Shown: positions 5,419 to 32,424, numbered from the stretch's first letter. The stretch: 64,000 nt of DNA from Candidatus Kaiserbacteria bacterium (GCA_016182485.1 JACPGH010000005.1:64305-128304); one strand, 5' to 3'. Notes: generated by a model from the sequence alone, not told the origin. Made by a program: numbers and translations.

Positions 5419-6189
5419 ATGCTGGAGGAAGGACTGGCCAAAGCTGGCTTAAATGCCAAAGAAGCGGCGATTTATCTCGCCGCGCTTGAGTCGGGCCCCT
5501 CGAGCATTCTGCAACTCAGCCGGAAGACGGGTATCAAGCGGCCGACGATATACGAAATGATGCCCTCATTGCTCCGCTCCGGCGTCATAGCGCAAACAGC
5601 CAAGGGGAAGCGCAAGCAATTCGTGGCTGAGCCGCCCGAGAAGCTCTTTGAGGCCAAAAGGCAGGAGCTGAATTCCCTTCGCGAGCTCCTCCCTACTCTC
5701 GAAGCGTTCCGCAATGCGTCTATCGAAAAGCCGGATATTAAGTGGTTTCAGGGTATTGAAAACATCCAAGAAATTTTGTGGGACATGGTGAGCAACACGA
5801 GCGTGAAAGAGCAGCTGCTCGCAATTGAGGGCCAGTTCAACTCTATCTACCAAAAGCTTGGGGACGAATTCTTCCAGAAACTCTTGAGGGAGAAAGCCCG
5901 CCGTAATCTCGAATCGCTCACAATTTCGACCATGAGTCCGCAGGAGCTGGAGAAAACGGTCCGGGACGCTCCCTGGAGCGTCGGCCACCAGATCGAAGTC
6001 CGCCTTATCGAAGATGCGAATAATGACTTCAAACTCAATTTCTTCATATATCAGGATAAAGTAACGATAATTTCTGCCTTGCAGGAGGTAGCGCTAGTGA
6101 TTGAAAACAAGATCCTGTTCAACAGCCTCAAACTTCTCTTTATGACCCTCTGGAAAACAGCGCGAGAAACTCCCTATCGAATCTCGTAA
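5419..6189 (+). CDS. TrmB-like HTH transcriptional regulator (paralog 1)
   Basis: N-terminal wHTH (AAIYLAALESGPSSILQLSRKTGIKRPTIYEMM). Conserved C-terminal LFMTLWKTARE tail shared with five other ORFs here. Confidence 0.6.
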   Translation: MLEEGLAKAGLNAKEAAIYLAALESGPSSILQLSRKTGIKRPTIYEMMPSLLRSGVIAQTAKGKRKQFVAEPPEKLFEAKRQELNSLRELLPTLEAFRNASIEKPDIKWFQGIENIQEILWDMVSNTSVKEQLLAIEGQFNSIYQKLGDEFFQKLLREKARRNLESLTISTMSPQELEKTVRDAPWSVGHQIEVRLIEDANNDFKLNFFIYQDKVTIISALQEVALVIENKILFNSLKLLFMTLWKTARETPYRIS

Positions 6190-6196
6190 TTCGCGG

Positions 6197-6237
6197 CCCG
6201 ACCACTGCCCCGTTTCGATTGCTCTCTCATAAAACAA
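6197..6237. repeat. imperfect direct repeat of the xth 3' end (matches 4670-4710)
   Basis: ccgaccactgccccgtttcgattgctctctcataaaa vs ccgaccactgccctgtttctattgttctttcgtaaaa, about 36/41 identical. Confidence 0.6.
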
Positions 6238-6406
6238 AACCGCCGGATGTTATCCGACGGTTCAATGCGCAGAGCAGGGTTACAACTGTGGGGTAAGGCT
6301 CCCCTAAATACTCACCTGCTTTCTGGGCGCTGCGCCGCCCCGGTGACGCTCCATATGCCTCAAGCTCTCCGCCTTATTATTGAGGCACACCCGCCACCCG
6401 GCTGAA

Positions 6407-6625
6407 TCAGATCTTTTCGACAATCACAGTCGTCACGTAATAGACGTGACGCGCGATTCCTTGCATCATGCTGCGCTCGGTGCGATAGTCCCACGTTCCG
6501 TGGAGCGCCAAGCTCGTAGTCGCAGACACAATCCGCCAGCTGCTGCCAAGCTCCCGAAGACGCTTCTCAAGCTCTTCCTCAGGCGAATCGTTACGCGAAC
6601 CCACGATGATTACTTTCTGTTCCAT
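6407..6625 (-). CDS. hypothetical small protein
   Basis: ORF only (MEQKVIIVGSRND...). No confident family. Confidence 0.3.
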   Translation of the reverse strand: MEQKVIIVGSRNDSPEEELEKRLRELGSSWRIVSATTSLALHGTWDYRTERSMMQGIARHVYYVTTVIVEKI

Positions 6626-6638
6626 GTATGCCTCCTTT

Positions 6639-6800
6639 CTATTCGTAATCTTCATCGTGAGGAACGGGATCCGCTATCCTTTGGGAGGCAAATGGAAATT
6701 CCTTGCACTTTCGGCAATACAGATCTTTACAGTCATACTGGTTAATTGCGAAAGTGAGGCCACCGCCGCAATGTGGGCAACAAGCATCTCCTCGTCCCAT
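6639..6800 (-). CDS. hypothetical zinc-ribbon protein (CxxC...CxxC)
   Basis: MGRGDACCPHCGG...CRKCKE. The track ORF's N-terminal extension overlaps the repeat A copy, so the internal start is preferred. Confidence 0.3.
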   Translation of the reverse strand: MGRGDACCPHCGGGLTFAINQYDCKDLYCRKCKEFPFASQRIADPVPHDEDYE

Positions 6801-6869
6801 TAGACTCTCCTTATCCTGCCTCCCCTTTCGGATGAGGACTTTCGGCCAAAGAACATGAGCGAACATCTT

Positions 6870-6919
6870 CGCTCTTCTGAAAATCCAATTCGCATCAGAT
6901 TTTCGGAACAGCGGGCGAA
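6870..6919. repeat. repeat A copy (reverse orientation)
   Basis: Exact reverse complement of 21684-21733 (ttcgcccgctgttccgaaaatctgatgcgaattggattttcagaagagcg). Confidence 0.7.
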
Positions 6920-6922
6920 TTC

Positions 6923-7240
6923 TCATTCGCCCTTGCCTCCTTTCTCAAGTAGCGCTCTAACAACCTTGACGACCTCTTCAACCGGGTGGCACTCCAGAAA
7001 GTCGCGATACCCGGCGCTGATGAGTGGACCACGCCCTTTCCCATTGAGTTCGGCATTGACGTCAGAAATGTCGATCCCGATGAGTTGGAAGGCGCGCACC
7101 ACAGCCTCCGCATTCTCATATACGGCTCCGCAGTACTCGATTTCCCCTTTGAAGGAACTGACTGAACATCCCGTGCATCCTTGAACGGCATAGCCGAAGG
7201 CGAGGCGCAGAACAAAGAGTTTCTCCTCGATACTAAACAT
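6923..7240 (-). CDS. hypothetical protein
   Basis: ORF only. Confidence 0.3.
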   Translation of the reverse strand: MFSIEEKLFVLRLAFGYAVQGCTGCSVSSFKGEIEYCGAVYENAEAVVRAFQLIGIDISDVNAELNGKGRGPLISAGYRDFLECHPVEEVVKVVRALLEKGGKGE

Positions 7241-7418
7241 AGTGCCATTCTCCCAGTTCCTGCCTGCCCTTTCGGGTCAGGGCTTATGGGTTCAATGTTC
7301 AACGTCTCTGGCACCACAATAGCAGGCGCAACACCTTTTGTCAATATTGGTTATGACACAATTAAATGTCATTGGTGTTTGCATTACATAGGTATTTTGA
7401 TACGCTGTCATATATCCT

Positions 7419-8192
7419 ATGACAGGCAGATCCGTGACAGAAGAACAGCCATTGATTAACCGCCTTGCGGAATGGGGGCTGACGCGGGCGGAGGCCGAAG
7501 TGTATGTCTATTTGCTCCAGCGGCCGACCGAGAGCGGCGGGTCGAAGATCGCCGTGGGGACCGGCCTACACCGGCAGTATGTCTATATCGCCCTAGAGAA
7601 GCTCCTTGCTGCAGGCCTCGTTGAGGCAATTCCATTCGGCAAGCATAAAAAGTACAGAGCCCGCTCCCCGCTCGAGATCGAGAAGATCACGCGCAAGAGG
7701 AGTGTGGCGGCAAGCGACCTGGTGCACGAATTGAATAAGATAAGCGCCATTCATAGCGAACAGGACTTCGAAGTGCTGCAGGGCGCAAATCAAATCCAGC
7801 AATATGAGATGGACTATGTCTATGGATGTACGGAGGGAGAAGAGGAGCTCATTATCGGCGGGCATTCCAAAGGTTTTTTCGACCTAATGGGCGATGGTCT
7901 AGAGGAATATATAGAGGAGAAAGAGCGTAAAGGCATAAAAGTACAATATATTGGCAGCTTGAGCGAGAAGCCGCTCTACGAGCTAAACATTAGCTCGTAC
8001 GGAAATCAGAATTATCGCTATTTAGAGGGGATGCACGAAGGAGTAACGCACTTGGTGATCCGGAAAGATTCAGTTTCCTTTTGGAGTTTTCTCACTCCCC
8101 CGCTGGTCTATGTGATCAAGTCTGCGACTGTGGCAGATGACTACCGGAAATTTTTCCAGCTGCTTTGGGATATCGCCGGCAAACAGGGCTAA
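7419..8192 (+). CDS. TrmB-like HTH transcriptional regulator (paralog 2)
   Basis: wHTH (AEVYVYLLQRPTESGGSKIAVGTGLHRQYVYIALEKL) plus family C-terminal tail (FFQLLWDIAGKQG). Confidence 0.6.
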   Translation: MTGRSVTEEQPLINRLAEWGLTRAEAEVYVYLLQRPTESGGSKIAVGTGLHRQYVYIALEKLLAAGLVEAIPFGKHKKYRARSPLEIEKITRKRSVAASDLVHELNKISAIHSEQDFEVLQGANQIQQYEMDYVYGCTEGEEELIIGGHSKGFFDLMGDGLEEYIEEKERKGIKVQYIGSLSEKPLYELNISSYGNQNYRYLEGMHEGVTHLVIRKDSVSFWSFLTPPLVYVIKSATVADDYRKFFQLLWDIAGKQG

Positions 8193-8249
8193 AGGACATC
8201 CTTCAACCCGCTCGGGATGAGTTTTCCACAGGGATGTCCTTTACAATGT

Positions 8250-8560
8250 CTTTTATCATTCTAAACTTGGCTAAGGAGGAGGCGGTGTGCGGCTAGGCTC
8301 AGGACCGGCTCCATTGGATGTTCTTTAGGAGTTCTTTTAACATCAGACGCTCTGTGAGTAACCTGCCTGCGCCAGCGGCGATCCGCTAACACTACCGGGC
8401 ACGGGACCCGAACGGAAGCGCAATAGTGCTTTTGACAAAAGCCACCCACCATTTCTCCGACTGAGGCACCATCATTTACGCCCCGCTCCTTTTACGCCGC
8501 AGTCACCCGCTGGGTGGCTTTGTTGTTTACTCTGAGCTTTAGTGAAGGAAGCGAACTGGC
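8250..8560. ncRNA. candidate structured ncRNA (unidentified; weak SRP-RNA-like GGAAGC motif)
   Basis: About 350 nt with no credible ORF between a terminator-like hairpin at 8196-8252 and the palindromic repeats. Hairpins include gccacccacc...gggtggc. No family confirmed. Confidence 0.2.
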
Positions 8561-8610
8561 CTTCCTATTTAAACTAAGAATGTTTCGCGTGAACCATATA
8601 TGCGTCCAAG

Positions 8611-8721
8611 TTGTGAAGGTCTGACCTTCACAACTTAATGAAAGCAAATTACATTCGATATATTCGCATGATTTACAAGATATATCGGACTGTGAAGGTC
8701 TGACCTTCACAAGTTAATGAA
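8611..8721. repeat. two direct copies of a 23 bp palindrome, TTGTGAAGGTCTGACCTTCACAA(C/G)TTAATGAA, about 80 bp apart
   Basis: Copies at 8611-8642 and 8690-8721, downstream of cca. Confidence 0.65.
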
Positions 8722-8760
8722 GTTGCTTTTAACTCCCATTATCTATTGAAATCAATCGAT

Positions 8761-10269
8761 TTAGCACACGTGGTGTTTTTCCATTATTTGGCGTACTTCC
8801 TCATTTTCGGCGGCTTCCCGCCTTTTCTTCCCCGCTTCCCCAAGCCTCTTGAGTTCATTCTCGTCCAGCATTAACAGTTCTTCGGTTCTCTTATCTAGAT
8901 AGTCATGCACGTTTCGCGCGGAATCGTCCAAGACTTCTTCGAGCAGTGCATTCAGGACATATCCTATCCTAGGCCCCGGTTTCGCGTGGAACTTCTCCAT
9001 TATCCTGGTGCCATCTGTCTTCAGCATCTTCACAGAGATAGGATCTCGAAGAGCCTGTTCCACCATAGCTTTGTACTTCCTGAATCTAAAAGGCTGTTCC
9101 TTAGGCCGTCCCGTCCCAATCCGGTCGCATATACGGAGGTTAAGCAAGTCCCAAATATTTTCCTGTCCAACATTCGTAACCATTCTGCGTACGGCCGATA
9201 ACGTTATCTGATCAGGATCAGAAAAGAACATGTGCCACCGGACAAGCTTTACTACCTTGTCTATTGTTTCGCGTGGAAAGTGCAGCTCCTCTAGAGCTTT
9301 TTTGGTTACACGTGAACCAACCACGTCGTGTCCATGAAAGGTCCAGTCTTTTTTTTCGTCGGACCATCGGCGGCTCTCGGGCTTCGCTATGTCATGGAAG
9401 AGCCCGGCAATCGTAACGTCGAAGCCGAAGCGCTTATCCGCCCCGTGCTGCATTGTACGGAGATTGTGCTCAAAGACATCGTAGCTATGCGCCTGGTTTT
9501 GCTCGACGCCAATACCTCGCACTAAATCGCCGACTATGAATTCGAGAATGCCGAGCTGGTGGGCGAGCACGAGCGCATTCATCGGCTTCTTTGACTCTAG
9601 AATACGCACAAGCTCATCTCGAATCCTCTCGCGCGAAATTTGGCTTAAATGCTGACTGTTTTGCTTAATGGCAGCGGCCGTGTCGCTCTCTATGCCGAAG
9701 TCGAGCTCAGCCACAAGCCGCACGGCCCGGAGCATTCGCAGGGCGTCCTCATCAAAGCGTTCTCCGGCGTTCCCGACGGCTCGTATTATCTTGTCCTTTA
9801 TGTCCTTTTGACCATCATACGGGTCCACTATTTGTCCTTTATCTGCATCGAGAGCGATGGCATTTATCGTAAAGTCACGCCGGGCAAGGTCTTGGAGAAG
9901 GGAAGTGCCAAATTCGACCTTGTCCGGCCGACGCTTGTCGGAATAGCCGGATTCGGTGCGGTAAGGTGTCACCTCGACTATTGCCAGCCGCTCGTCCTCT
10001 GAACCGGTCTTCACGCCCACCGTGCCGTATTCATTTTCATAAAAAGAATCAGGAAATACGGCCTGGATTTGCTCCGGGGTAGCGTTCGTGGTGAGGTCCC
10101 AGTCCTTCGGCTCGCGGCCGAGGATAAGGTCGCGGACACAGCCGCCCACCAAATACGCTTCAAATCCCTTTTCATGAAGGGAGTTCGATACCCGAGAAAT
10201 CTCTTCCGGGATAGGGAAGCGCATATCCACAATGCTAGCATAGCGTGCTAACTTAGATTCGAGGAACAT
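8761..10269 (-). CDS. cca: CCA-adding enzyme (tRNA nucleotidyltransferase with HD domain)
   Basis: GGCVRDLILGR...DWD head motif plus C-terminal HD domain (LFHDIAKP). The start at MFLESK (10269) is chosen because the upstream ORF extension translates across a tRNA. Confidence 0.8.
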   Translation of the reverse strand: MFLESKLARYASIVDMRFPIPEEISRVSNSLHEKGFEAYLVGGCVRDLILGREPKDWDLTTNATPEQIQAVFPDSFYENEYGTVGVKTGSEDERLAIVEVTPYRTESGYSDKRRPDKVEFGTSLLQDLARRDFTINAIALDADKGQIVDPYDGQKDIKDKIIRAVGNAGERFDEDALRMLRAVRLVAELDFGIESDTAAAIKQNSQHLSQISRERIRDELVRILESKKPMNALVLAHQLGILEFIVGDLVRGIGVEQNQAHSYDVFEHNLRTMQHGADKRFGFDVTIAGLFHDIAKPESRRWSDEKKDWTFHGHDVVGSRVTKKALEELHFPRETIDKVVKLVRWHMFFSDPDQITLSAVRRMVTNVGQENIWDLLNLRICDRIGTGRPKEQPFRFRKYKAMVEQALRDPISVKMLKTDGTRIMEKFHAKPGPRIGYVLNALLEEVLDDSARNVHDYLDKRTEELLMLDENELKRLGEAGKKRREAAENEEVRQIMEKHHVC

Positions 10270-10334
10270 TGTGGTTCCTCTCTTCGTCCCGGTATCGTTC
10301 AAGCAAATACCGGAGCTCGCTCGGCGAACTCTTC

Positions 10335-10406
10335 GCCCCGGTGGTGAAATGGATATCACAGCTGACTTCGGATCAGCTATTCTGGGTTCGAATCCTGGCC
10401 GGGGCA
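10335..10406 (+). tRNA. tRNA-Arg (anticodon TCG)
   Basis: Hand-folded 72 nt cloverleaf: acceptor GCCCCGG/CCGGGGC, D arm GTGA/TCAC, anticodon stem GCTGA/TCAGC with loop CTTCGGA, T loop TTCGAAT. No encoded CCA. Confidence 0.7.
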
Positions 10407-10454
10407 CATTGCGAAAGGCGGCCTCAGAGAGGCCGCCCTGTGAGATGCGCGGAA

Positions 10455-10667
10455 CTAGGCTTTGTCGCGAGGCGGTATCCAGCGCGGTAGACCTCGAGGG
10501 CCTACTGACCAGTAGCCGCCCCTCCGCTCCAACCGATCCAGGCGATCGAACTCCTCCTCTGTAGGCTTGTGCCATGGCCGCAAAGCCAATGCCCCCAAGA
10601 TTCCAAAAAGAACAGGCAGTCCGATGAGGAGAAACAAGAGCACTAGCCCACTCCAGTCCCCAAACAC
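10455..10667 (-). CDS. hypothetical small membrane protein
   Basis: One TM helix followed by a charged tail. Confidence 0.3.
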   Translation of the reverse strand: MFGDWSGLVLLFLLIGLPVLFGILGALALRPWHKPTEEEFDRLDRLERRGGYWSVGPRGLPRWIPPRDKA

Positions 10668-10669
10668 AG

Positions 10670-10888
10670 CTACCTCCCTTCTGGATGAATGCGTCGAACA
10701 AGGCGGCCAGTCTTGTTGATGTGCAGCTGCCGGAGCGCCTTCCCGATCTGCCGACGCTCGTGCCGGATCGCGGAGGGGAAGTCTTTGTGCTTGCCAGACT
10801 GCACCTCCTTGAGCAAATCTACGTAGCAGGCGTTGAGGAACTGCAAGAGTCCTCTTACTGCCGGTTTGTTGAATCCGCTTGGTGGCAT
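10670..10888 (-). CDS. hypothetical protein
   Basis: ORF only. Confidence 0.25.
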   Translation of the reverse strand: MPPSGFNKPAVRGLLQFLNACYVDLLKEVQSGKHKDFPSAIRHERRQIGKALRQLHINKTGRLVRRIHPEGR

Positions 10889-11012
10889 TTCGCCCTCCTC
10901 TCGTGTACTTGCCCCAAATTGGAATATAAAAACTGTAAATAATTTAGCAAGGAAGCGGGCATATTTCTATGGAAATTGTACTTTTCGTTCAAAATCCATT
11001 ATTCTATCTGCA

Positions 11013-11858
11013 ATGCTTTACAGCAAGGACATCGAACTAGAGGATAAAGTCATCGAATCGCTGGCCGCCGGCAGCATGAGCATCAATGCTATCCACTCGC
11101 GTCTCGGGAAAGATACAAAGGTCTCCCTGCGCGCGGTGTATAAGGCGATAGACAAGCTCCGCAAAGCCGGTGTCCTCTTGAAAGCGGGGAAGCGAGTACT
11201 GATTGATCAAGAGTGGGCCAAGCGAGTCGAGGAGAAATTCAACGCCATCGTCCCCGCTTTTCTCTTGCAGAAGGGCGAGCGCGCAGTCTACTCGTTCACC
11301 TCGATAGAGAACTTGGACGCTTTCTGGAAAACCATCGTCTTGCCGCTCGAGCGTTCCGTTCCGAACGGAGAGATCTTTTTCTATAATCCGCACAATTTCT
11401 GGGCGTACATGCCCGCCCGGAAGGAAAGTGAAGATGCGTATTATCGGCACTTTGCCGAAACTAACCGATTCGGCTTCTTCACGGTCGGCGGAGATACTGC
11501 GGCAGATATTGAATTCAAGCGGGCGTATCAAAACGACCGCCTTCAAATTGACTTGCAGCCCATCGCCGCGCTCGGCCGACGAGACCACATTACCGTAGTC
11601 GGACCCTTCATCATCACCGTTCGGCTTGCTAAAGGCATTGCTGAGCGTATCGACGAACTGTATGCGTCTGGGGAAGGGATCGAGTATCTCCTCCTCGCAA
11701 TTTCTCAGACCTGCGAACGCCCGGGGAAGGTCCGATTTGTCCTTGAGAATAACCCCGCTAGAGCTTCAGAACTACGCCGGCTACTGGCTAAAAATTTCTA
11801 CTTCACCTCCTCTGAGTACGGGCATGGAGGCTCCATACCTGCACCTCGTTCGGCATAA
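11013..11858 (+). CDS. TrmB-like HTH transcriptional regulator (paralog 3)
   Basis: wHTH (MSINAIHSRLGKDTKVSLRAVYKAIDKLRKAG), preceded by an AT-rich promoter region. Start at the internal M (MLYSKD). Confidence 0.5.
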   Translation: MLYSKDIELEDKVIESLAAGSMSINAIHSRLGKDTKVSLRAVYKAIDKLRKAGVLLKAGKRVLIDQEWAKRVEEKFNAIVPAFLLQKGERAVYSFTSIENLDAFWKTIVLPLERSVPNGEIFFYNPHNFWAYMPARKESEDAYYRHFAETNRFGFFTVGGDTAADIEFKRAYQNDRLQIDLQPIAALGRRDHITVVGPFIITVRLAKGIAERIDELYASGEGIEYLLLAISQTCERPGKVRFVLENNPARASELRRLLAKNFYFTSSEYGHGGSIPAPRSA

Positions 11859-16984: not shown

Positions 16985-17809
16985 TCAGCGTGCCGATTCT
17001 TTATTACCCTCCACCTCTGCAATAATCCCTCGTAAAATCTCGTTCGCATCTATGACGCGCGAATGATCCTGCATGAATTTGAGGAACGAGAGCAGCATCT
17101 TTTGGATTTCAGAATTGCGGATCTCAATAACCAGCTCTTCTCCGAGGGCCATCAGGTAGATGGATTGTTTAAAAATGAAGACCTGGCTGGCATGGTTAAA
17201 ATATTCGCCTTCTACCACACCCACTCTCGTCGTGCGGCCTTCGAAATCCCTCGCCCACGAGACTCCCAATTCTCTCGCCATTCTTTCAAGCTCCCCGTCT
17301 TGGAATATTGACTCGGCAATGATGTTGTTTTTCTTCAGCGCACGATTGAAACGGTTCGTCTCCTGAAGAGAGAACGTTTTATTCCAATTTACAGCCGCAC
17401 TATCGCCAACGAGAGAATAGAATCTCTCATTCTTGTGCGCAAAGAGCAGTTCGCCCAGCACCTTTCGAATCGAGTCCTGGCCGCGATGAATGATGACCGT
17501 GGCATCCGAAAGGCCGTGCACCTCCTCAGTCCCTTCCGGAATCTTTAGAAGCGTCCGCTTAGCCGCATACAGCACCCCCTCGATATCTCGCTCGGGGGCG
17601 AGCCGCCACATTTTCTTGCCGCTCGTAATATGAGACTCAGCCAAACCGCGCTTTTTCAGATTGTAGAGAATCGCGTAGGCCGCCGTGCGAGACACTCTCG
17701 TTGCACGCGCCAATAAAAGAGGCGTATCAACACCACTCTGGAGGGCAGTGAGTATCTTTTCTTCTTTCTTTGAGAGTCCAAGTAGCTTGAGGGTTTCAGA
17801 AGCGGGCAT
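16985..17809 (-). CDS. TrmB-like HTH transcriptional regulator (paralog 4)
   Basis: wHTH (EEKILTALQSGVDTPLLLARATRVSRTAAYAILYNLKKRGL). Divergent from the peptide/radical-SAM operon. Confidence 0.6.
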   Translation of the reverse strand: MPASETLKLLGLSKKEEKILTALQSGVDTPLLLARATRVSRTAAYAILYNLKKRGLAESHITSGKKMWRLAPERDIEGVLYAAKRTLLKIPEGTEEVHGLSDATVIIHRGQDSIRKVLGELLFAHKNERFYSLVGDSAAVNWNKTFSLQETNRFNRALKKNNIIAESIFQDGELERMARELGVSWARDFEGRTTRVGVVEGEYFNHASQVFIFKQSIYLMALGEELVIEIRNSEIQKMLLSFLKFMQDHSRVIDANEILRGIIAEVEGNKESAR

Positions 17810-17991
17810 ACCGGAAGGGTAGCAAATGGGGCAATTCTGTCAAGTTATTTAGACACATATATACTCTGAAATTGCTATTTAGAATAAGACTTTTCTATCA
17901 GTAATCACTCTATGACAGGATTATTTTTTACTGTCAACTGCAAGACGAATACACTTAATTCAGACCGATCCTTGAAAGGAGGTGAACGCCC

Positions 17992-18063
17992 ATGCCGACG
18001 GCCAACTCGGGTTCCGCCGGGAAGAGCCGCAAGGCTCTGCCGGCCAAGCGCCCCTCCAAGTAG
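17992..18063 (+). CDS. 23-aa peptide MPTANSGSAGKSRKALPAKRPSK (candidate precursor peptide 1)
   Basis: SD GGAGGTG 8 nt upstream. Near-identical to the peptide 100 bp downstream. Confidence 0.5.
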   Translation: MPTANSGSAGKSRKALPAKRPSK

Positions 18064-18166
18064 GGCGCGGGGAACCTGTCAGCTCCGGGCTGACCGAGTG
18101 CGCGCGCCACTTGGGAACAGAAGTGCGCGCAGCATTCAAAACACCAAGAGAAAGGAGGTGATGTCC

Positions 18167-18238
18167 ATGGCCACAGCCAACGCCGGTTCCGCTGGCAAGA
18201 GCCGCAAGGCTCTGCCGGCAAGACGCCCCTCCAAGTAG
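18167..18238 (+). CDS. 23-aa peptide MATANAGSAGKSRKALPARRPSK (candidate precursor peptide 2)
   Basis: SD AAAGGAGGTG upstream. The alternative start at 18161 gives MSMATAN.... Confidence 0.5.
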   Translation: MATANAGSAGKSRKALPARRPSK

Positions 18239-18244: not shown

Positions 18245-18275
18245 GGCGGAAGCGGGGACTTGTCCCCGCTTCTTT
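18245..18275 (+). terminator. hairpin plus T-tract (partial terminator/attenuator) between the peptide genes and the radical-SAM gene
   Basis: ggaagcggggacttgtccccgcttctttgtt. Confidence 0.4.
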
Positions 18276-18297
18276 GTTATCAACCCAGACTGCTACT

Positions 18298-19656
18298 ATG
18301 GAGAGGACAATGGAAGGCCAACCGAAGCAGAAACTCGAGAGCCAAGAAGCGCTGTCAGAACTGACGTTGCAGACCGAGCTGCGCGAGAGCGGGGAGTACG
18401 CCTACGCCCCGTCCGCATCGCACTGGTACTGGAACATGGTGGACGGCAAGCCGTTCAGCGACACGCAGAAAGCGGAGCTTCTCCTGGCGCAAAAAGACGA
18501 GCTTCCGTATCTGGTCTCCGCCTTGTTGGAGAGGACCTGCAATCTCCGCTGCGCGCACTGCATCTACCAAGACGAGCAGAGCAGCAGGAAGGCGTCGGAG
18601 GAAGGCCAGCTAGCGGCGGTCGTCGAGCACATAATCCGTACGATGCCGCAAGGCCCCGCAGAGCAGAGGGCCAAGTTCATGTCCGCCGGCAGAATCCTGC
18701 GGCCGTGGCACCTCGACATCTTCAAGAAACTTCGCGAGAGCCGGCCGGACGTGCAGCTTGGCGTCATCGACAACGGCACGTACACGAAACTGTTGCGCAC
18801 ATGGCCAGAAGGATTGCAACTGGACTGGCTCGACATCTCTGTGGACGGCACCGAGGCGAACCATGACAAGCAGAGAGGGGAGTCCTCATACGCCGCGGCT
18901 ATGGAGGGACTGCGGCATGCGCGCGAAATCACTCGCTCTCGTGAAGAGGGCGGATATGTGGCATCGCTGCTGACGCTCACCAACATCAACGCGGGCGACG
19001 TCTTGCAAGTAGCCAATACTCTTCTCAATGAGAAGGCCGGCGAACCGCTGGCAGACAAGCTGAACCTCACGACCATGGGGCCGACCAACGCGATCAATGC
19101 GCGCCTCGAGATAAGTCAGCTCGACTTCGCGCAGGCGTGGGACGGACTCAAAGAGGCGTGTGCGAAATACAACACGCCAGGCAACGAGCGTGTCTCGCTC
19201 GGCCTGTACCGCGTCGAGGACGTGGAGAAGCTCGCCGCAGTGGTCGGAGAAGGGAAATTCTTAGAGTCCTTTCCAGCCGACGAGGACAAGGCGCGCGAGC
19301 GGGTCACGTTCCGAGGCAACTTCGTCGAAACGCATGTCGACGGCGTGCCCGTCTCCTACCTGCCCATCTCGATCTGGCCGCCTGAAGAATTCTTGATCGA
19401 TGCGGATGGGGCATACCGCCTCGCCTACGAAGGCCAGTTCACGCTCGAGGAGCTGCGTGCGGGCTCACAAGAAAGCTGGGACGGCCACAGCGCGCGCGAC
19501 TACACCGTCACGCAGCTCACGCCAGAGACGGACTTCCGCGCTGTGTACGAGCAAGCCGTGGATATCTACTGGCAACGCTTCGGCCACGCAAAGCTCGATC
19601 AGGAATTCGCCGCGTTCGCGCGAATACGCGAAAAGGCCCGACAAGAGGGCAGGTAA
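18298..19656 (+). CDS. radical SAM enzyme (CX3CX2C; no obvious SPASM cysteines)
   Basis: LLERTCNLRCAHCIYQ radical-SAM cluster motif at about residue 85. Only one other Cys, so a SPASM/twitch domain is unlikely. Start could be 18298 or 18310 (SD GGAGAGG). Confidence 0.7.
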   Translation: MERTMEGQPKQKLESQEALSELTLQTELRESGEYAYAPSASHWYWNMVDGKPFSDTQKAELLLAQKDELPYLVSALLERTCNLRCAHCIYQDEQSSRKASEEGQLAAVVEHIIRTMPQGPAEQRAKFMSAGRILRPWHLDIFKKLRESRPDVQLGVIDNGTYTKLLRTWPEGLQLDWLDISVDGTEANHDKQRGESSYAAAMEGLRHAREITRSREEGGYVASLLTLTNINAGDVLQVANTLLNEKAGEPLADKLNLTTMGPTNAINARLEISQLDFAQAWDGLKEACAKYNTPGNERVSLGLYRVEDVEKLAAVVGEGKFLESFPADEDKARERVTFRGNFVETHVDGVPVSYLPISIWPPEEFLIDADGAYRLAYEGQFTLEELRAGSQESWDGHSARDYTVTQLTPETDFRAVYEQAVDIYWQRFGHAKLDQEFAAFARIREKARQEGR

Positions 19657-20201: not shown

Positions 20202-20984
20202 TTAAGCATCGAGCGTCATCCACTGGAGCGCGAAGATGCTTTTCAGCGTTCGGGCGATGCCGGCGCTCTCAATAATGAGCCCGAGCTGGTCCTGAAAGGA
20301 CATGATGCCGATTCTGTCCGGCCCGTAGAGATTGACCTCGACCAAGAGAGGGAATTGTTCCGGGTCGATGAGTTTGGTGGTGCGTAAGGACTTGTTATCT
20401 ATGCCCTTATAGTCCCGGATTATCGGCAGATCCGGCGCGATCGCTTCTACCCAGATCTTTTTCTCCAGCCGCTTCGGCACATAGTATTCATCGAGAAATT
20501 TCTGATCGAATTTATGGATCATTTCTTCCGAAACCCACGTCTGCATCTTTTGATCCGGAAAGCGGAGCGTGTCTTTGTACACGTCTTTAATTCCTTCGAT
20601 GCCTTCGAAATAGCGAATGCGCGGCTTTTTCTTCAGCGTGTTCGTGATGGAGAGCAATTCAGGCAAAATCTTCTCGATCGAAGATTTCTTTTCGTCGAGC
20701 AATTCGACTATTTTCCGCGGGTCCTCCGCTATGTATATGATTTTCTTTTGTCTTTTGGCCGTACTCACGAGTCCGGAACGCTTGAGCGATTCCACGGTGT
20801 CATAAAGGGTCGTCCGTTTCAGCTTAGACTTCTTCACGAGCTGGCCCATGTGAGCCTCGCCAAGCTCGAGGAGAGCCAGGTAGGCCGCAGCCTCCTTGTC
20901 GTCGAGCCCGGTGCCTTTCAAATCAGAAATCGTCATGGTTTTGGTATAAGTGTCGTCCTTTAGGTCAACTTTTACATCATACAC
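20202..20984 (-). CDS. TrmB-like HTH transcriptional regulator (paralog 5)
   Basis: wHTH (KEAAAYLALLELGEAHMGQLVKKSKLKRTTLYDTVESLKRSGL) plus the family C-terminus. Start may be the internal M (20936). Confidence 0.6.
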   Translation of the reverse strand: MYDVKVDLKDDTYTKTMTISDLKGTGLDDKEAAAYLALLELGEAHMGQLVKKSKLKRTTLYDTVESLKRSGLVSTAKRQKKIIYIAEDPRKIVELLDEKKSSIEKILPELLSITNTLKKKPRIRYFEGIEGIKDVYKDTLRFPDQKMQTWVSEEMIHKFDQKFLDEYYVPKRLEKKIWVEAIAPDLPIIRDYKGIDNKSLRTTKLIDPEQFPLLVEVNLYGPDRIGIMSFQDQLGLIIESAGIARTLKSIFALQWMTLDA

Positions 20985-21667: not shown

Positions 21668-21733
21668 GGGCGAAGTGCAATGCTTCGCCCGCTGTTCCGA
21701 AAATCTGATGCGAATTGGATTTTCAGAAGAGCG
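21668..21733. repeat. hairpin (gggcgaagtgcaatgcttcgccc) plus repeat A copy (21684-21733)
   Basis: 50 bp identical to the reverse complement of 6870-6919. About 150 bp upstream of the NYN gene. Confidence 0.7.
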
Positions 21734-21881
21734 GATGGGGTTATCTACAGCGGCAAGACTTCATGTTGACCTCGTGTGTGGATAGGTTATACTGGCTATG
21801 AAAATCACCGGCGCCTCCCGCAAGGGATTGTGCCGGTTTTTCGTTCTCCAATAACGAGAATCACATGCTACCATCATTTGC

Positions 21882-22550
21882 ATGAGAGAAACCGAACGTG
21901 TCGAGATTCTCATCGACGCAGGGAACTTCTATCATCTTGCGCTTAAGAAACTTGGCGTCGCGGAAATAGATTTCGATTATGAGGCCTTTGTTTCTTTTCT
22001 CATGAACGGCCGCACGCTCGTCCCTGAAGGGAAGCGATTATATGTCGGTACCGTACGCGAAAAAGAAGGCGATTTGAGGACGAAGAACGCGATGGCCGAA
22101 CAGCGCCGGTTCTTGTCAGTGCTCCTATCGGCGAAATGGCAGATAAAGACCAGCAAACTCCGATCGCGCATTGAAGAGATAGCTGTTGATTCGCGCATGC
22201 AGGAGTACAAAACTCTGACTGCCGCGGGTGTTCAAACGATTCACGTTGAACGCATGCGCGAAAAGGGTATCGATGTGAAAATCGCGACTGATCTCATCGT
22301 CGGAGCAGTAGACGATAAATATGATACTGCAATTGTCATCAGTTCAGATACCGATTTAGTTCCCGCCATTGACTGGGTTCGGATGCGAAAGAAGAAACGC
22401 GCCGAGTACGTAGGATTTTCAATTCCCGATGCTCGCGGCAACGCCTATGCGTCGAAGCCGACGTTTGCGCTCATCGCGCGGACGGATGTCCAGCGCATCC
22501 TAGTTGAATCGGACATACGGCGTTTTATTAAGCAAAAACTCATGCCATAG
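21882..22550 (+). CDS. NYN-domain (LabA/DUF88-like) protein, second copy
   Basis: IDAGNFYH...GIDVKIATDLIVGAVDDKYDTAIVISSDTDLVPAI. Confidence 0.65.
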   Translation: MRETERVEILIDAGNFYHLALKKLGVAEIDFDYEAFVSFLMNGRTLVPEGKRLYVGTVREKEGDLRTKNAMAEQRRFLSVLLSAKWQIKTSKLRSRIEEIAVDSRMQEYKTLTAAGVQTIHVERMREKGIDVKIATDLIVGAVDDKYDTAIVISSDTDLVPAIDWVRMRKKKRAEYVGFSIPDARGNAYASKPTFALIARTDVQRILVESDIRRFIKQKLMP

Positions 22551-22557
22551 CGCAACG

Positions 22558-22607
22558 CTTCGCCCGCTGTTCTGAGAACCGATCGAGTTCGGGATTCAGA
22601 AGAGCGG
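22558..22607. repeat. diverged repeat A copy immediately after the NYN gene stop
   Basis: cttcgcccgctgttctgagaaccgatcgagttcgggattcagaagagcgg. Same orientation as 21684-21733. Confidence 0.6.
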
Positions 22608-22824
22608 AACACGAAACAGAAGAGCCGCGACAGGGTCGCGGCTCTTGAAGCAAGCATCGCCTGGCATGCCGGCGGGATGAGGGGATTCCTAGTCGACCCC
22701 GGAGAAGAACTGCCAGATGGGCGCACAGCGCGCCCGCCAGGTATAGAGGTGAATGACCGCGTCAACCAACGCTGCGCATGCGACGAGTGCGAGCAGAGCA
22801 TGGAGCCTCGTCATAGCCGCCTAC

Positions 22825-24386: not shown

Positions 24387-24662
24387 CTAGCGGATCGCCT
24401 CCTTGAGCGCCTTCGCCGGGCGGAACTTCGCCGTGCGGGTCGCCGCGATGCGGATCGTCTCGCCGGTGCGCGGGTTACGACCCTCCCGCGCCGGGCGCGC
24501 CTTGGTCGCGAAGATGCCGAGTCCGGCGACCGATACCTCGTCGCCAGATTTCAGACTGGAAACGATACAATCTATCACCGTCTCAACGGCGCGCTCCGCG
24601 TCGGCCTTCGTCGAGCCGAGCGTGCTGTGCACCTTGTCAATTATGTCTGCTTTGTTGGCCAT
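24387..24662 (-). CDS. hup: HU-family DNA-binding protein
   Basis: MANKADIIDKV...GLGIFATKARPAREGRNPRTGE.I.I typical of HU/IHF. Confidence 0.85.
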   Translation of the reverse strand: MANKADIIDKVHSTLGSTKADAERAVETVIDCIVSSLKSGDEVSVAGLGIFATKARPAREGRNPRTGETIRIAATRTAKFRPAKALKEAIR

Positions 24663-24823
24663 GGGAATGTTTAATCGGGTAATGAAATAAGTATAGAATG
24701 CGCCGCTTTTCGCGCAATACCCTTGCCAACTCCCAGTGGATAGCGCGGAATAAAAAACAACAGGCTCCCTCCGCTTCGCCGTTCCGCGAAGCTTCAGGGA
24801 GCCGAGGACGTGCCGGGGCGGAA

Positions 24824-25114
24824 TCATTCTTTTTTCCTGTCCGGCACGCATGTTTCTCCGTCAAAACGGCTGTACTCCGGGTAATTCACCCGGCAGTACT
24901 CGTTCAGAAGCTCGTCCACTAGGACACGAGCCTCCTTGGAGCTGACCTTTTCTGGTAAACGGCGAGCTCGCTCGCACTCTACCAGACGGCCCGCAAGTTC
25001 CGGATGCTCCGAGCAGACAGTGCGGGGCGCCGCTAGGGCGAACGATACCGGCCTTGTGAGCGTTCCTGCGAGCAACAGCACGCAAAGGGATATTGGCAGG
25101 CGGTGGCGGTACAT
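24824..25114 (-). CDS. hypothetical secreted small protein (signal peptide, Cys-rich)
   Basis: MYRHRLPISLCVLLLAGTLT signal-like N-terminus. Confidence 0.3.
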   Translation of the reverse strand: MYRHRLPISLCVLLLAGTLTRPVSFALAAPRTVCSEHPELAGRLVECERARRLPEKVSSKEARVLVDELLNEYCRVNYPEYSRFDGETCVPDRKKE

Positions 25115-27391: not shown

Positions 27392-27433
27392 AATATTAGT
27401 ACGCTACCTAAAACCCCGCAATAAATCAAATTC

Positions 27434-27790: not shown

Positions 27791-28309
27791 TTATTTGCCC
27801 GATTTCTCTTGATACATATTGTGCGCCCGGTCAAAAGCCGCTTCCGCTTTGCCGCCGAAGCCGGTCACTTCAACAACCTTGTTCTGAAGATTTTTGTACG
27901 TCTTGTAGAAATGCTCCACTTCTTTGAGCGTATGCTTATTGACGTCCTTTAGGTCCTGCACCTCCTTCCATCGAGGGTCATCAACCGGCACCCCGATAAC
28001 CTTATCGTCGGCATCGCCGCCGTCGATCATGTGCATGATGGCGACCGGTCGGACGCGCACCAAGATTCCCGGCGCAAGCGGATAAGTCGTAAGTACGATG
28101 ACGTCGAGCGCGTCGCCGTCATCCCACAATGTTTGCGGCACGAAGCCGTAATCGACGGGGAATTGCTGGGTAGTATAAGAAACTCGATCTAGCGCGATGA
28201 GGCCCGTTTTCTTGTCAATTTCGTACTTATTCATCGAGCCTTTCGGGATCTCGACGATAACGCTCATTTCTTCTTTCGTGCCCGGCTCAATATCGTGCAG
28301 TAAATTCAT
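27791..28309 (-). CDS. ppa: inorganic pyrophosphatase
   Basis: Family I PPase motifs (DYGFVPQT..DGDALDVIVL). Confidence 0.9.
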   Translation of the reverse strand: MNLLHDIEPGTKEEMSVIVEIPKGSMNKYEIDKKTGLIALDRVSYTTQQFPVDYGFVPQTLWDDGDALDVIVLTTYPLAPGILVRVRPVAIMHMIDGGDADDKVIGVPVDDPRWKEVQDLKDVNKHTLKEVEHFYKTYKNLQNKVVEVTGFGGKAEAAFDRAHNMYQEKSGK

Positions 28310-28319
28310 ATGAAAATAA

Positions 28320-29262: not shown

Positions 29263-29301
29263 GAGCTAGATTCTAGCAGTCACCTAGCGCCTAGAGCCTA
29301 G

Positions 29302-30711
29302 TTAATCGTCCTTCGCTTTGTCGCGGTCTTCTTCTTTGTCGGCGACGGTCTCGTCGCTCGCGGGAAGCTCGGTCAGTTCTTCTTCGGCAGGCAGGGCGGT
29401 TATCTCGGACGAGTCGTCAGTGATTATTTCAGAGGCTTCAGTAGGCATCGCGCCCATTGCTACAGCGGGCTCTTCGCCGGTACTTCCTGCGTCAGTACTT
29501 CCTGTGTCAGCATCTTCGACACCTTCGGTACTTACGGCACTTCCTGCGTCAGCACTGACAGCTTCGCCGCCGCCAGCCGAAACGATATCGATGTTCCAGC
29601 CGGTCAGCTTCGCGGCCAGCCGCACATTCTGCCCGCCGCGGCCGATGGCGGGCGACTGCTCGTCTTCGGTGACCGTAACCTTTGCGCGGTGGTCGGCCTC
29701 GTCTAGCGCGACCTCGAGCGGCTTGGCGGGGGAGAGCGCTTGCCGCACGAATTCGCGCGCGTCGGAATTCCACTCGATGATGTCGATGCGCTCGCCGCCA
29801 AGCTCGCTCATGACTATCGAGACGCGCACGCCGCGCTGGCCGACGAGCGACCCGACCGGGTCGACGTGCGTATCGAGCGAGACGAGGGCGATCTTCGTGC
29901 GGCTGCCAGGCTCGCGCGCGATAGCTTTCACTTCGATCGCGCCCGAAGCCAATTCCGGCGCTTCAAGTTCGAAAAGTTTAATGACAAATTTCGGATGCGC
30001 GCGCGAGAGCCGCAGATAGACGCCGCGGAAACCTTCGTCCACCGAGTACAAATAAGCACGGATGCGCTCGCCGATACGGTAGCGCTCGCCCGGGATCTGT
30101 TCTTCATAGGGGATAATACCGGTCGTGCGCCCGAGATCCACGAAAATCGCCCCGCGCTCCATGCGTTGGACGATCCCGGATACGATCTGACCCTTCTTCT
30201 CGCTGAATTCTTCCATCATTGATAGCTTTTCAGCCTCGCGGACTTTCTGGATGACGACCTGCTTGGCCGTCTGCGCCGCAATGCGGCCGAAATCGTCCTG
30301 CGGCTCTAGCGGGAAGATGATCTCTTCGCCCACTTGCGCGCCGCGCTTGATGAGCCGCGCGTCGGCGAGCAGGATGTGCTTCTCGGGGTCGAAGCGCGGC
30401 AATTCGCCCTCCTGCAGTTCTTCCTCATGCTCGTAACGGCTGGCTTCGAGTTTCTGGTTTCTGGTTTCTGGTTCACCGGCTTCCGAAGCAAATCGCACGG
30501 TCGTTTCGTCGACGACGGTCTTCACCTGCTCGAAGGCGATAGTGCCCGTGTTGAGATCGAGCTTGGCGCGCACTACCTGCCCGCGCTTGCCGTATTCGCG
30601 CTTATAGGCAGTCGCCATCGCCGCCTCGATAGCTTCTATCATCGTTTCTTTGCTGATGCCCCGGTCCTCGAACTCGCCGAGTACTGCGTGGATTGTTTTT
30701 AGGTCAATCAT
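29302..30711 (-). CDS. nusA: transcription termination/antitermination factor NusA
   Basis: N-terminal domain, S1 and KH domains, acidic C-terminal tail. Confidence 0.9.
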
Positions 30712-30823
30712 GGTCGCTATGGATTATGTATGTACTTACAGCACTAAATCTCTTTGATAACGAAAGCCCCGCCGGGGCTTTCAGATGCGCCAATGCTACC
30801 AAAAGCGCTCTGTCCGCGCAACT

Positions 30824-31012
30824 TCATTCGAATAGCTGCGCATGTGACCCTGTATCTACAAACACAATGATGCGTCCGCCGCGTATCTCATACATCAGCA
30901 ATAAATCGTCTTTAATATGGCATTCGCGATAGCCAGCAAATTCACCCGAAAGAGCATGGTCTCGATACTTTTCCGGCAGAATCTTACCGGAACACAGGTA
31001 TTCTGTTACCAA
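30824..31012 (-). CDS. YafQ/RelE-family toxin (annotated from a TTG; homology extends about 25 codons upstream into the antitoxin 3' end with no canonical start)
   Basis: ILPEKYRDHALSGEFAGYRECHIKDDLLLMY matches the YafQ core. The upstream in-frame FNRSFRKLKK matches the YafQ N-terminus. Confidence 0.5.
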   Translation of the reverse strand: MVTEYLCSGKILPEKYRDHALSGEFAGYRECHIKDDLLLMYEIRGGRIIVFVDTGSHAQLFE

Positions 31013-31056
31013 CTTAAAGTCATATGCGAGGTTGGAGGTAAGCCTTCCAGATTTTT

Positions 31057-31338
31057 TCAGTTTCCGGAATGAGCGGTTGAAAATATGCCGAGATCCTTGA
31101 AAAGTTCTTTGGTGCTGGTGTACTTCTTACCGTTCTTGATAGCATCGGCGACCTCGCGGTCCCATTTTGCCCGCAATGCGGCAGGATTCTTGGTGGGCAT
31201 AAAGGGCAGGCCTTGCTCCGTCACCACCTGATTCAAGAAAAGCTTCACGCCACTAGATAAGTCCAGCCCAACTCCTTCGAGCGCCTTCTTGGCGGCCTTC
31301 TTGGTTTTTTCTTCAATTCTGACATTCAACGTAGTCAT
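31057..31338 (-). CDS. DinJ/RelB-family antitoxin
   Basis: LNVRIEEKTKKAAKKALEGVGLDLSSGVKLFL..V..QGLPF matches the DinJ pattern. Confidence 0.65.
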   Translation of the reverse strand: MTTLNVRIEEKTKKAAKKALEGVGLDLSSGVKLFLNQVVTEQGLPFMPTKNPAALRAKWDREVADAIKNGKKYTSTKELFKDLGIFSTAHSGN

Positions 31339-31440
31339 GCGCCTATGATATACAATGTGCGCTCATCGTCAATACACACTGAAACGCGACGCTACTTTGA
31401 GCGTCCACGCGATCGTGCGGACATGCACCAGGCTGCCACA

Positions 31441-31464
31441 GTGATGGACACGTCGTGTCCATCA
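31441..31464. promoter_or_regulatory. palindrome B copy (GTGATGGACACGTCGTGTCCATCA) ~100 bp upstream of dinJ; candidate operator
   Basis: Perfect inverted repeat shared with the XRE locus. Confidence 0.4.
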
Positions 31465-31482
31465 AACCCACCTCCATTAAAG

Positions 31483-32424
31483 CTAGTCTGCTTTATATTG
31501 GGTTTCTTTGGCGGAGTCCCAGAGCATTTTAAAGAGTTGGCGCTGGTTACGCGCAAGTACGGGATCATAGATTTCTACTAAATAGTGCGGCTTCTCGCGC
31601 GTGCGGACCATCAGAATATAGTCTCCCGCAACCCAGAGAGAAGAATCGAATTCATTTCCCGGCGGGAGCGGCCGCACGCGGCGTTCCCCGTGTCTTTTCT
31701 CCATTTCTCCTTCGATATCTGCGCGATTCGAGAAAAAACGGACTTTTACAGAGGGATCGAACTTCCAACTGGATTCGATAAATTCCTCATATTGCTCGGT
31801 AAAGGAGTGGTCCTGATAACCCCACCAGGTATTGTCGTATCGCTTGCCATTTTTCATCCACGTCTCCATCTGTTTATGCAAGTAGTCGCTTAAATCGCGC
31901 TCTTGAACGAATTTGATCTTTGGGATCGAATAGTTCTGGCTCATCGCCATCTCAGAGAGCTCCGCCGAGAGGGAAGCGGCTAACCGCATCTTATCCCGAA
32001 TCTCCCGCTCTTCCTGCTCAACCGCTCTCATAATGGCATCCGGCCCTTCTGACGCTAAATAAGTGATCTTGCCGCTCAGAGGACTGGGAAATTCGCCGAG
32101 AGCGGCCTTGGACCCGCACAAAATCATGAACGGAGGAGGGTAGCGTGGAGTTAGTGATAAAACTGGTTCGAGAGGTTCGAGTGTAACCCGTACGCATCCA
32201 CTATCAGTGAGCCAGCAGGCTACCGCTTTTTCACCGTGTATCTGTACTTGAGAGACGAACAGGCGAGAGTCAGGACTAGGAGGGCTGACCATAGGGGCAC
32301 AGAAGGCGTACACAGGAGCATCATCGAAGACAGGCTGGCTACAAGAGACGAGCTGCAGGAGGCTTGCTACCGAGCTCATGACAAGTTGGATAGGTTGCTC
32401 AAAATTGAGCAGTACTATCTGCAC
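31483..32424 (-). CDS. TrmB-family C-terminal-domain protein lacking a recognisable HTH (paralog 6, possibly degraded)
   Basis: C-terminus (LFKMLWDSAKETQYKAD) matches the family tail. The N-terminal ~110 aa has no wHTH. Confidence 0.4.
   Translation of the reverse strand: MQIVLLNFEQPIQLVMSSVASLLQLVSCSQPVFDDAPVYAFCAPMVSPPSPDSRLFVSQVQIHGEKAVACWLTDSGCVRVTLEPLEPVLSLTPRYPPPFMILCGSKAALGEFPSPLSGKITYLASEGPDAIMRAVEQEEREIRDKMRLAASLSAELSEMAMSQNYSIPKIKFVQERDLSDYLHKQMETWMKNGKRYDNTWWGYQDHSFTEQYEEFIESSWKFDPSVKVRFFSNRADIEGEMEKRHGERRVRPLPPGNEFDSSLWVAGDYILMVRTREKPHYLVEIYDPVLARNQRQLFKMLWDSAKETQYKAD

Follow-up and report, generated by a model that had tools for sequence, protein, structure and literature searches.

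A cluster of TrmBL2-like paralogs in a core gene block of a Candidatus Kaiserbacteria genome, one of them without its helix-turn-helix

When several regulators of one kind lie within 27 kb of a bacterial genome, do they record a recent burst of local duplication or an old inheritance? The question is raised by a 64,000-nucleotide (nt) stretch of DNA from a Candidatus Kaiserbacteria bacterium (GCA_016182485.1 JACPGH010000005.1:64305-128304), the whole of which we call the window. An original prediction, made by a model from the sequence alone, had described six TrmB-like winged helix-turn-helix (wHTH) paralogs there, one of them lacking the HTH, and had taken their density as a sign of lineage-specific expansion, possibly on small mobile cassettes. 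The six open reading frames (ORFs), which we label A to F in coordinate order, were all found at the positions and on the strands assigned to them (Table 1). Our own reading, to which we give a probability of roughly three in four, is that A, B, D, E and F are five anciently diverged TrmB paralogs of TrmBL2 architecture, vertically inherited and with F truncated, and that C belongs to another family.

The paralogs in the window are distant from one another, with pairwise identities of 13-29%. A aligns with E across 244 aa at 29% identity (81.6 bits) and with B across 249 aa at 26%, and phmmer aligns it with D over the full length. Against the Pfam TrmB model PF01978, whose gathering cut-off is 25.6 bits, A, B and E score 43.8, 42.9 and 49.8 bits; D falls slightly under the cut-off at 24.0 bits, and most of its orthologs carry a precomputed PF01978 domain. 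The model finds no match in C, and F, from which the HTH domain is absent, has no Pfam match. Comparison of three subfamily profiles (D-type, F-type, and an A-type that takes in B and E) joined F-type to A-type with 99.6% probability over 240 columns, and D-type to A-type with 98.9% probability over 235 columns. A hidden Markov model (HMM) trained on homologs of A together with A, B, D and E themselves matched F at profile positions 74-248 (E 9e-5); when run on the 64-kb window, it returned no further member.

By these sequence comparisons, A, B, D, E and F form a single superfamily, and the homology of A, B, D and E extends over their full length. The C-terminal tails quoted earlier were recovered (LFMTLWKTARE in A, FFQLLWDIAGKQG in B, LFKMLWDSAKE in F), and the alignments indicate that the shared F-K-x-x-W following a V-E-I/N strand is the end of a common domain of ~150 aa and not a chance resemblance. 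The pairwise test of whether the tail is fortuitous gave real full-length homology for A, B, D and E and a shared C-terminal ~205 aa for F, whereas C has no tail motif. The claim of six paralogs is accordingly reduced to five members of one superfamily, with C assigned to a different wHTH family. Similarly, of the five TrmB-type wHTH domains that had been announced, those of A, B and E pass PF01978 and that of D comes close, but C matches only HTH_11, below threshold at 19.4 bits.

Each of these copies has its closest relatives in other genomes. The best orthologs found elsewhere are 52% identical for A (range 45-52%), 66% for B (in L017), 79% and 75% for D (in L007 and L008; 66-79% across related genomes), 83% and 79% for E (range 75-83%, located beside HU, RNase Y and CCA genes) and 58% for F. 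A scan of genome contigs with D found two loci only. In a neighbor-joining tree, A, B, D and E each grouped with foreign orthologs with bootstrap values of 94-100, and F fell within the clade of its subfamily (a narrower, preset F group received 45). Copies from the window appeared as sisters in none of the 100 bootstrap replicates. A phylogeny had been proposed as the check for recent local duplication, and its outcome speaks against such an event.

Gene order around the orthologs is also conserved. In L017 it runs PilB, TrmB-like, NusA, pyrophosphatase, ClpP, RNase Y, D, HU, MgsA, trypsin-like protease, UPF0102, CCA and the B ortholog, which adjoins the CCA-adding enzyme gene there as B does in the window. 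A Kaiserbacteria locus, L016, reads Exo_endo_phos, CCA, UPF0102, protease, radical SAM, D, HU, RNase Y, ClpP, pyrophosphatase and TrmB-like. Two family members lie near ClpP, RNase Y and HU in L012; in L018 and L020, E orthologs lie between HU, RNase Y and CCA and adjoin a full-length F-type gene; and L008 has a similar conserved arrangement around its D ortholog. The neighbors in the window are the same housekeeping genes (for the CCA enzyme, HU, RNase Y, ClpP, NusA and PilB), with no integrase or transposase among them, and viral contigs scanned with A and E alone held no close relatives. The conserved core neighborhood of the B, D and E orthologs, together with the TrmB-like genes adjacent to pilB, argues for vertical inheritance and not for mobile cassettes. 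In our reading, the paralogs sit in a core housekeeping block common to Kaiserbacteria-like genomes of the candidate phyla radiation (CPR), with local rearrangements.

How unusual, then, is the density? The window holds five members in 27 kb and its syntenic relatives two to three per 13-21 kb, while 28 unselected metagenomic loci around E-like genes (277 kb) contained five extra copies in total, or ~0.18 per 10 kb; a single locus of this set has four members in 8 kb. An unrelated metagenomic contig, L026 (Ga0172380_10003085, 3170-11190), is denser than the window, with four TrmB-like paralogs in 8 kb; tight clusters of the family therefore occur elsewhere. The clustering is real and above average, as had been noted, yet only moderately unusual. 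It is an old, inherited property of the core block of this lineage, and the paralog set is typical of the CPR group, not a recent or mobile expansion.

The fold predicted for A points to the archaeal protein TrmBL2. An AlphaFold (AF2) model built with a 140-sequence alignment has a predicted local distance difference test score (pLDDT) of 93 and comprises a wHTH (helices 13-54 and wing 57-70), which a 28-residue helix (74-101) connects to an alpha/beta domain (106-255); the block-mean pLDDT across the putative coiled-coil region (residues 71-110) is 81-95. Foldseek against the PDB ranked the TrmBL2 structures 5bpd, 5bpi, 5box and 5bqt at the top, over the full length (E 8e-13 to 1e-11), with TrmB (3qph) next (E 2e-10). 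The C-terminal domain matched the PLD-family nuclease NucT (6ehi, E 1.7e-5, target-normalized TM-score 0.64-0.67). At the sequence level, the family profile matched TrmBL2 at residues 5-153, extending past the HTH (E 1e-10). In the recognition helix of A, R41 is conserved in 100% and Y45 in 99% of the 140 sequences, and a phmmer alignment to 3qph sets Y45 opposite Y50 of TrmB, a DNA-binding residue (PMC4158304). The same 140-sequence alignment has no HxK(x)4D motif in the C-terminal domain, where His reaches at most 44% in any column. Against the NCBIfam equivalogs NF040851 and NF047390, with cut-offs of 500-650 bits, the window proteins score 13-30 bits.

We conclude that A, B, D and E are TrmB-family proteins of TrmBL2-like architecture and not the sugar-sensing TrmB proper. 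With F, they would constitute one bacterial branch of the TrmB family, whose architecture, when complete, is a wHTH with a DNA-contacting tyrosine, then a long amphipathic helix expected to dimerize as a coiled coil, then a non-catalytic PLD-like alpha/beta domain. Their most likely role would be that of transcription regulators that bind DNA as dimers and control themselves and the genes beside them.

The last copy, F, had been said to keep the family C-terminus but no HTH, and HMM, hhalign and tblastn searches all bear this out and identify it as a truncation. We found 75 relatives, ~250 aa long and nearly all with PF01978; F aligns with them at 50-58% identity, but not before their residue ~53. 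Likewise, tblastn matches of F orthologs begin at ortholog residue 52-58, near window position 32106, and an hhalign comparison with the family returned F with 87% probability (E 4e-6). What F retains is the wing strand GKITYLASEGPDA together with the coiled coil and the entire C-terminal domain (~205 aa); the three HTH helices are gone, with no remnant of them in any frame up to 1.1 kb upstream. The extension that takes their place has no Pfam match and no homolog besides the identical P0122. Its codon-usage score is -0.14, compared with +0.23 for the homologous part, a weak indication given that one known shadow ORF scored like real genes. Neither the rest of the window nor any of the fetched loci matched the region 32100-32630. 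The junction recurs in L078, a Logan contig assembled independently that agrees with the window at every position of 31154-32545, and is hence no assembly artefact of the metagenome-assembled genome. F has no internal stop and lies 5-11 identity points farther from outgroups than its nearest relative, P0123. Judging from the sequence, F is a real member of a fifth subfamily that has lost its first ~53 residues and left no frameshifted remnant, and its 5' extension is probably not native coding sequence. Truncated in this way, F could not bind DNA as its relatives do. Two readings suggest themselves, a pseudogene of recent origin and a partner protein that works without an HTH, and we slightly favor decay.

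On the opposite strand, a 125-codon frame without an ATG start (32161-32538, +) runs antisense to the F extension; it has no homolog, Pfam or phage match, and we rejected it. A 13-bp GC-rich hairpin (32580-32608) lies 12 nt before the pilB ATG (32621).

C is a wHTH protein of another, unannotated family, as far as its sequence allows us to say, and at best a very remote relative of the other five. An exhaustive phmmer search gathered 593 representative clusters (50% identity) at E <= 0.001, made up of ~270-aa proteins; the best ortholog of C elsewhere is 50% identical. Among 47 family members scanned, no Pfam match was better than E 9.6e-5, and the weak ones included FUR (four) and TrmB (two). 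With hhalign, C reached 64-73% probability against a pooled superfamily profile (E ~3-6e-5, 185-238 columns) and 6-35% against single subfamily profiles, where the D-type and A-type alignments covered the HTH only (40-53 columns); against the F-type profile, 162 columns aligned at 5.7% probability. The superfamily HMM matched C with E 0.12, and an AlphaFold model from the single sequence, with no alignment, was unusable (pLDDT 38). In the related genome L008, ClpP and RNase Y flank a paralog of C (2356-3180) that is 31% identical to it.

Table 1. Features of the locus (positions counted from the first letter of the window)
Feature	Coordinates	Strand	Description
A	5419..6189	+	256 aa, full-length TrmB-like regulator; identical NCBI protein HYV30_02325; wHTH, coiled-coil helix, PLD-like C-terminal domain
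B	7419..8192	+	257 aa, full-length TrmB-like regulator
C	11013..11858	+	281 aa, separate Pfam-less family, probable N-terminal wHTH
D	16985..17809	-	274 aa, full-length TrmB-like regulator; identical NCBI protein HYV30_02405; most conserved subfamily
E	20202..20936	-	244 aa from ATG, full-length TrmB-like; ORF reaches GTG 20984
F, whole ORF	31483..32424	-	homologous part plus non-homologous 5' extension
F, homologous part	31483..32106	-	wing strand, coiled-coil helix, PLD-like domain; equals residues ~53-250 of orthologs
F, non-homologous 5' extension	32107..32424	-	107 codons in place of the HTH
Candidate operator of B	7405..7425	+	perfect palindrome CTGTCATA-N5-TATGACAG, overlaps the B ATG
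Second block upstream of B	7338..7359	+	TTGTCAAT-N5-GTTATGACAC, TGTCA/TGACA half-sites; also in L017
Conserved non-coding blocks upstream of D	17813..17937	-	alignment of window, L007 and L008
Small peptide gene 1	17992-18063	+	MPTANSGSAGKSRKALPAKRPSK
Small peptide gene 2	18161-18238	+	MSMATANAGSAGKSRKALPARRPSK
Hairpin	18248-18273		between the peptide genes and the radical SAM gene
Radical SAM gene	18274-19656	+	Radical_SAM Pfam match
Exo_endo_phos 3'-end relic (..DHCPVSIALS*)	6198..6234	+	direct repeat of 4671-4707 (family D5), 86% identical; blastn and tblastn

If these proteins are regulators, D has a putative target. A peptide/radical-SAM unit is transcribed divergently from it in the window and likewise in L007 and L008, while its divergent neighbor in L016 is a radical-SAM gene. 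The two tandem peptides of the window are 23-25 aa long, near-identical and very basic; their genes, which repeat each other directly over 82 nt at 84% identity, are each preceded by AAGGAGGTG, a strong ribosome-binding site (GGAGG), and the core N-[SA]-G-S-A-G-K-[SG]-R-K-A is kept in L007 and L008. From its sequence, the unit looks like a precursor and maturase pair for a ribosomally synthesized and post-translationally modified peptide. Upstream of D, a promoter-like block, TTGACA-N16-TACCCT, ends 3 nt before the ATG, with TACCCT itself 6 nt before it, and TTGACAGTAAAAAATAAT lies ~110 nt upstream. The upstream block is kept as DNA across differing reading frames and would therefore be regulatory, not coding. 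We propose that D would control the divergent small-peptide/radical-SAM operon. A further ORF (17912-18238, "hyp108", 108 aa) is probably spurious, and we rejected it as a gene: its codon usage is poor, it is uncalled in an independent assembly, and the conservation beneath it is at the DNA level or stems from the small peptide genes.

B has a candidate operator of its own. A palindrome over a gene's own start codon is the classical layout of an autorepressor operator, and B would bind the conserved palindrome over its own start site. The ortholog in L017 has TGTCATATGTCGTATGACAG at the corresponding place, and three of the 18 TGACAG/CTGTCA hexamers in the window fall at the B palindrome. The second conserved block farther upstream overlaps a promoter-like match on the opposite strand, which makes its role ambiguous.

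A itself may have a separate history. Directly after it lies a relic of 37-42 nt, the last 11-12 codons and stop of the upstream Exo_endo_phos gene, and the original and the relic bracket the XRE-A pair (~1.5 kb). In L016, Exo_endo_phos directly adjoins CCA, and the A orthologs found elsewhere have unrelated neighbors. The XRE-A pair thus looks like a later insertion, the only insertion-like signature in the window, and its flanks resemble attL/attR-type sites left by an insertion long ago, though an integrase is absent. In our reading, the XRE-A pair would have joined the core block later.

Several observations weigh against our interpretation. The full-length TM-scores of A against TrmBL2 are low (0.35-0.39), which probably stems from domain orientation. 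The effector-domain model PF11495 is absent among the matches of all six proteins at E <= 1 and also from the precomputed Pfam domains of their homologs, and the modeled tie to the TrmB effector domain would be at the level of fold only. By analogy with TrmBL2, which is non-specific, the fold does not guarantee specific regulation. The linkage of D to a radical-SAM gene is absent in L017 and L015. Finally, the candidate operators contain TTGACA-like hexamers and may be mere promoter elements, and a generic promoter scan showed no excess of sites and missed the conserved blocks just upstream of A, B, D and E.

How do the alternatives fare? A recent, lineage-specific expansion by local duplication on small mobile cassettes would suit the density of five copies in 27 kb, compared with ~0.18 extra copies per 10 kb in the 28 loci, the short repeated elements at gene ends, and the XRE-A pair with its bracketing 37-42-nt duplication and the unrelated contexts of A orthologs. 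Some copies do lie beside accessory genes, as had been claimed (the XRE gene, the YafQ and RelB toxin-antitoxin genes and the peptide/radical-SAM operon). We nonetheless consider this scenario very unlikely, and neither the expansion nor the cassettes find support: paralogs are 13-29% identical, whereas each copy has a closer ortholog elsewhere (50-83%); no copies from the window are sisters in 100 bootstrap trees; the B, D and E orthologs and the pilB-adjacent gene stay in a conserved core block; and no integrase or transposase was found among the neighbors, nor close relatives of A or E on viral contigs. For B, D, E and F the scenario is already contradicted, and the XRE-A pair is the exception to the case against cassettes. 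For F, function is an alternative to decay. F could be an HTH-less protein translated from an internal start that heterodimerizes with a full-length partner into complexes unable to bind DNA, a possibility we hold to be the less likely one. No stop or frameshift interrupts its ~205 codons, whose product is as much as 58% identical to orthologs and still includes the wing strand and the coiled-coil segment, and the structure is identical in an independent assembly. On the other hand, the window contains no full-length F-type partner, the supposed internal start has no recognizable promoter or ribosome-binding site, the upstream extension is homolog-less with atypical codon usage, and the greater distance from outgroups than P0123 (5-11 points) suggests relaxed constraint. 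Truncated relics are, moreover, common.

The remaining alternatives concern what the full-length proteins do. TrmBL2 is a non-specific chromatin protein of Thermococcales, and by analogy the window proteins might be nucleoid-associated, coating DNA with little specificity instead of regulating particular genes. TrmBL2 is their best structural and sequence match, with the same length and the same missing sugar-binding subdomain; D- or F-type genes lie beside HU in L008, L016 and L012 and one gene away in L017; and D is highly conserved among related genomes (66-79% identity). We judge a chromatin role unlikely, however, as five deeply diverged paralogs in a small genome better fit diversified specificities, conserved palindromes lie beside B, and D is kept divergent to one operon in four genomes. 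An active PLD nuclease or phosphodiesterase, which would make the proteins DNA-targeting enzymes and not regulators, could explain the NucT match of the C-terminal domain (E 1.7e-5, TM-score 0.67), but neither His nor HxK(x)4D is conserved in the 140 sequences, and the equivalent domain of TrmB and TrmBL2 is regarded as non-catalytic. We dropped this highly improbable reading, the motif being missing, along with a defense role, for which PADLOC matches were weak and limited to the HTH. A broader and rather speculative proposal, which we think has a slim chance of being right as a whole, joins these threads: the radiation of TrmBL2-architecture proteins would be the main transcription-factor or nucleoid toolkit of Kaiserbacteria-like CPR bacteria, anchored over long spans of evolution in the core block (HU, RNase Y, ClpP, NusA and the type IV pilus ATPase), with members dedicated to modules such as the small-peptide/radical-SAM operon and F-like HTH-less proteins acting as anti-regulators through heterodimerization. 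In the literature searched, no paper linked TrmB with CPR/Patescibacteria or described such a toolkit.

Some further observations concern the surroundings of these genes. The stretches in which a D- or F-type gene immediately adjoins the HU gene (Bac_DNA_binding) are L008 10001-11210, L012 6001-7173 and L016 10001-11150; the HU gene of the window (24387-24851) lies 3.4 kb away from E and 6.6 kb away from both D and F. There may be a functional link between TrmB-like regulators and this nucleoid protein. A ~60-nt repeat with an internal hairpin occurs in four copies (4708-4766, 6869-6919, 21674-21735 and 22549-22608), each right after a stop codon; positions 6870-6919 and 21684-21733 are 100% complementary over 50 nt, and this 50-nt core has no zero-mismatch match in 80 fetched loci. 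It may be an element of the repetitive extragenic palindrome (REP) or miniature inverted-repeat transposable element type, or a shared terminator. A 27-nt GC-rich palindrome, AGTGATGGACACGTCGTGTCCATCACT, is found at 4757-4783 and 31440-31466, with a variant at 5246-5273; the sites lie between convergent genes, just 3' of F and upstream of A, with zero expected by chance. It would probably serve as a terminator in both directions, or else be a REP-like element.

Gene starts deserve a separate comment. E most likely begins at ATG 20936 and not at GTG 20984, because the gene calls of independent assemblies and the orthologs begin there, and the start of C at 11013 is backed by homologs that align from residue 1. 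The AT-rich spacer said to precede every ORF was seen for A-E (GC 0.40-0.45, measured over the 240 nt ending 10 nt inside each gene), but F has 0.55, close to the ~0.55 of the window; the low GC of the A-E spacers is the usual intergenic composition. The 25 nt before the starts of A-E, ClpP (27391), NusA (30711) and others mostly lack a Shine-Dalgarno motif, and in several genes a -10-like hexamer lies 6-12 nt before the ATG, as in TACTTT-GACGAC-ATG (A) and TACCCT-TCCGGT-ATG (D); the small peptide genes differ in this, their GGAGG sites being perfect. Going by these starts, leaderless or very-short-leader mRNAs may be widespread in the source organism. A tRNA-Arg(TCG) at 10335-10407 lies inside the TTG-started ORF of the CCA-adding enzyme (8761-10701, minus strand). 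The Pfam homology of this ORF starts only at residue 182, which places its true start downstream of the tRNA, at minus-strand position ~10200 or below.

Hardly any work exists on regulation in CPR/Patescibacteria, and a TrmBL2-like family present as several old, syntenic paralogs in small genomes is of interest in that context. What the locus offers is a known family with new members in an understudied phylum, one truncated copy and one misassigned neighbor, the latter from a candidate new domain family without a Pfam model. It also corrects the picture in three respects: the clustering is no sign of mobility or recent expansion, one of the six proteins belongs to another, Pfam-less family, and the HTH-less copy is a truncation. 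Two pairings are testable, namely D with the conserved peptide/radical-SAM operon and B with the palindrome over its own start codon. These results should be useful for annotating thousands of proteins now called "hypothetical" or "HTH domain".

Among known systems, TrmBL2 of Pyrococcus and Thermococcus is the closest. It is alike in length (264 aa, compared with ~256-274 aa here) and also combines a wHTH that has the conserved tyrosine with a long coiled-coil helix and a PLD-like domain that lacks a sugar-binding subdomain. No other protein matched better in structure or in sequence profile, yet it is only ~16-17% identical and is archaeal, whereas the window proteins are bacterial (CPR), with several diverged paralogs at one locus. 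These are missed by the Pfam C-terminal model, and the filament-forming, non-specific DNA binding of TrmBL2 would extend to them by analogy only. TrmB/TrmBL1 (3qph) shares the DNA-binding domain PF01978, the coiled-coil helix and, at the level of fold, the N-terminal subdomain of the effector domain. These sugar sensors are ~340 aa long, and the window proteins, at 244-274 aa, stop ~80 residues sooner and lack the sugar-binding subdomain. A review of TrmB describes the coiled-coil helix, the sugar-binding subdomain with G320/E326, and TrmBL2 as a 264-aa protein without this ~70-residue part (PMC4158304). NucT (6ehi) has a similar C-terminal fold, but the domain in the window has no HKD motif and follows a wHTH and a coiled coil within one protein. 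Finally, "helix-turn-helix domain-containing proteins" of Azospirillum and Cupriavidus megaplasmids are 24-25% identical to A at 95-98% coverage (E ~4e-15). These proteobacterial relatives are very distant and annotated only as HTH proteins, and their full-length similarity to A indicates that the architecture is not limited to CPR.

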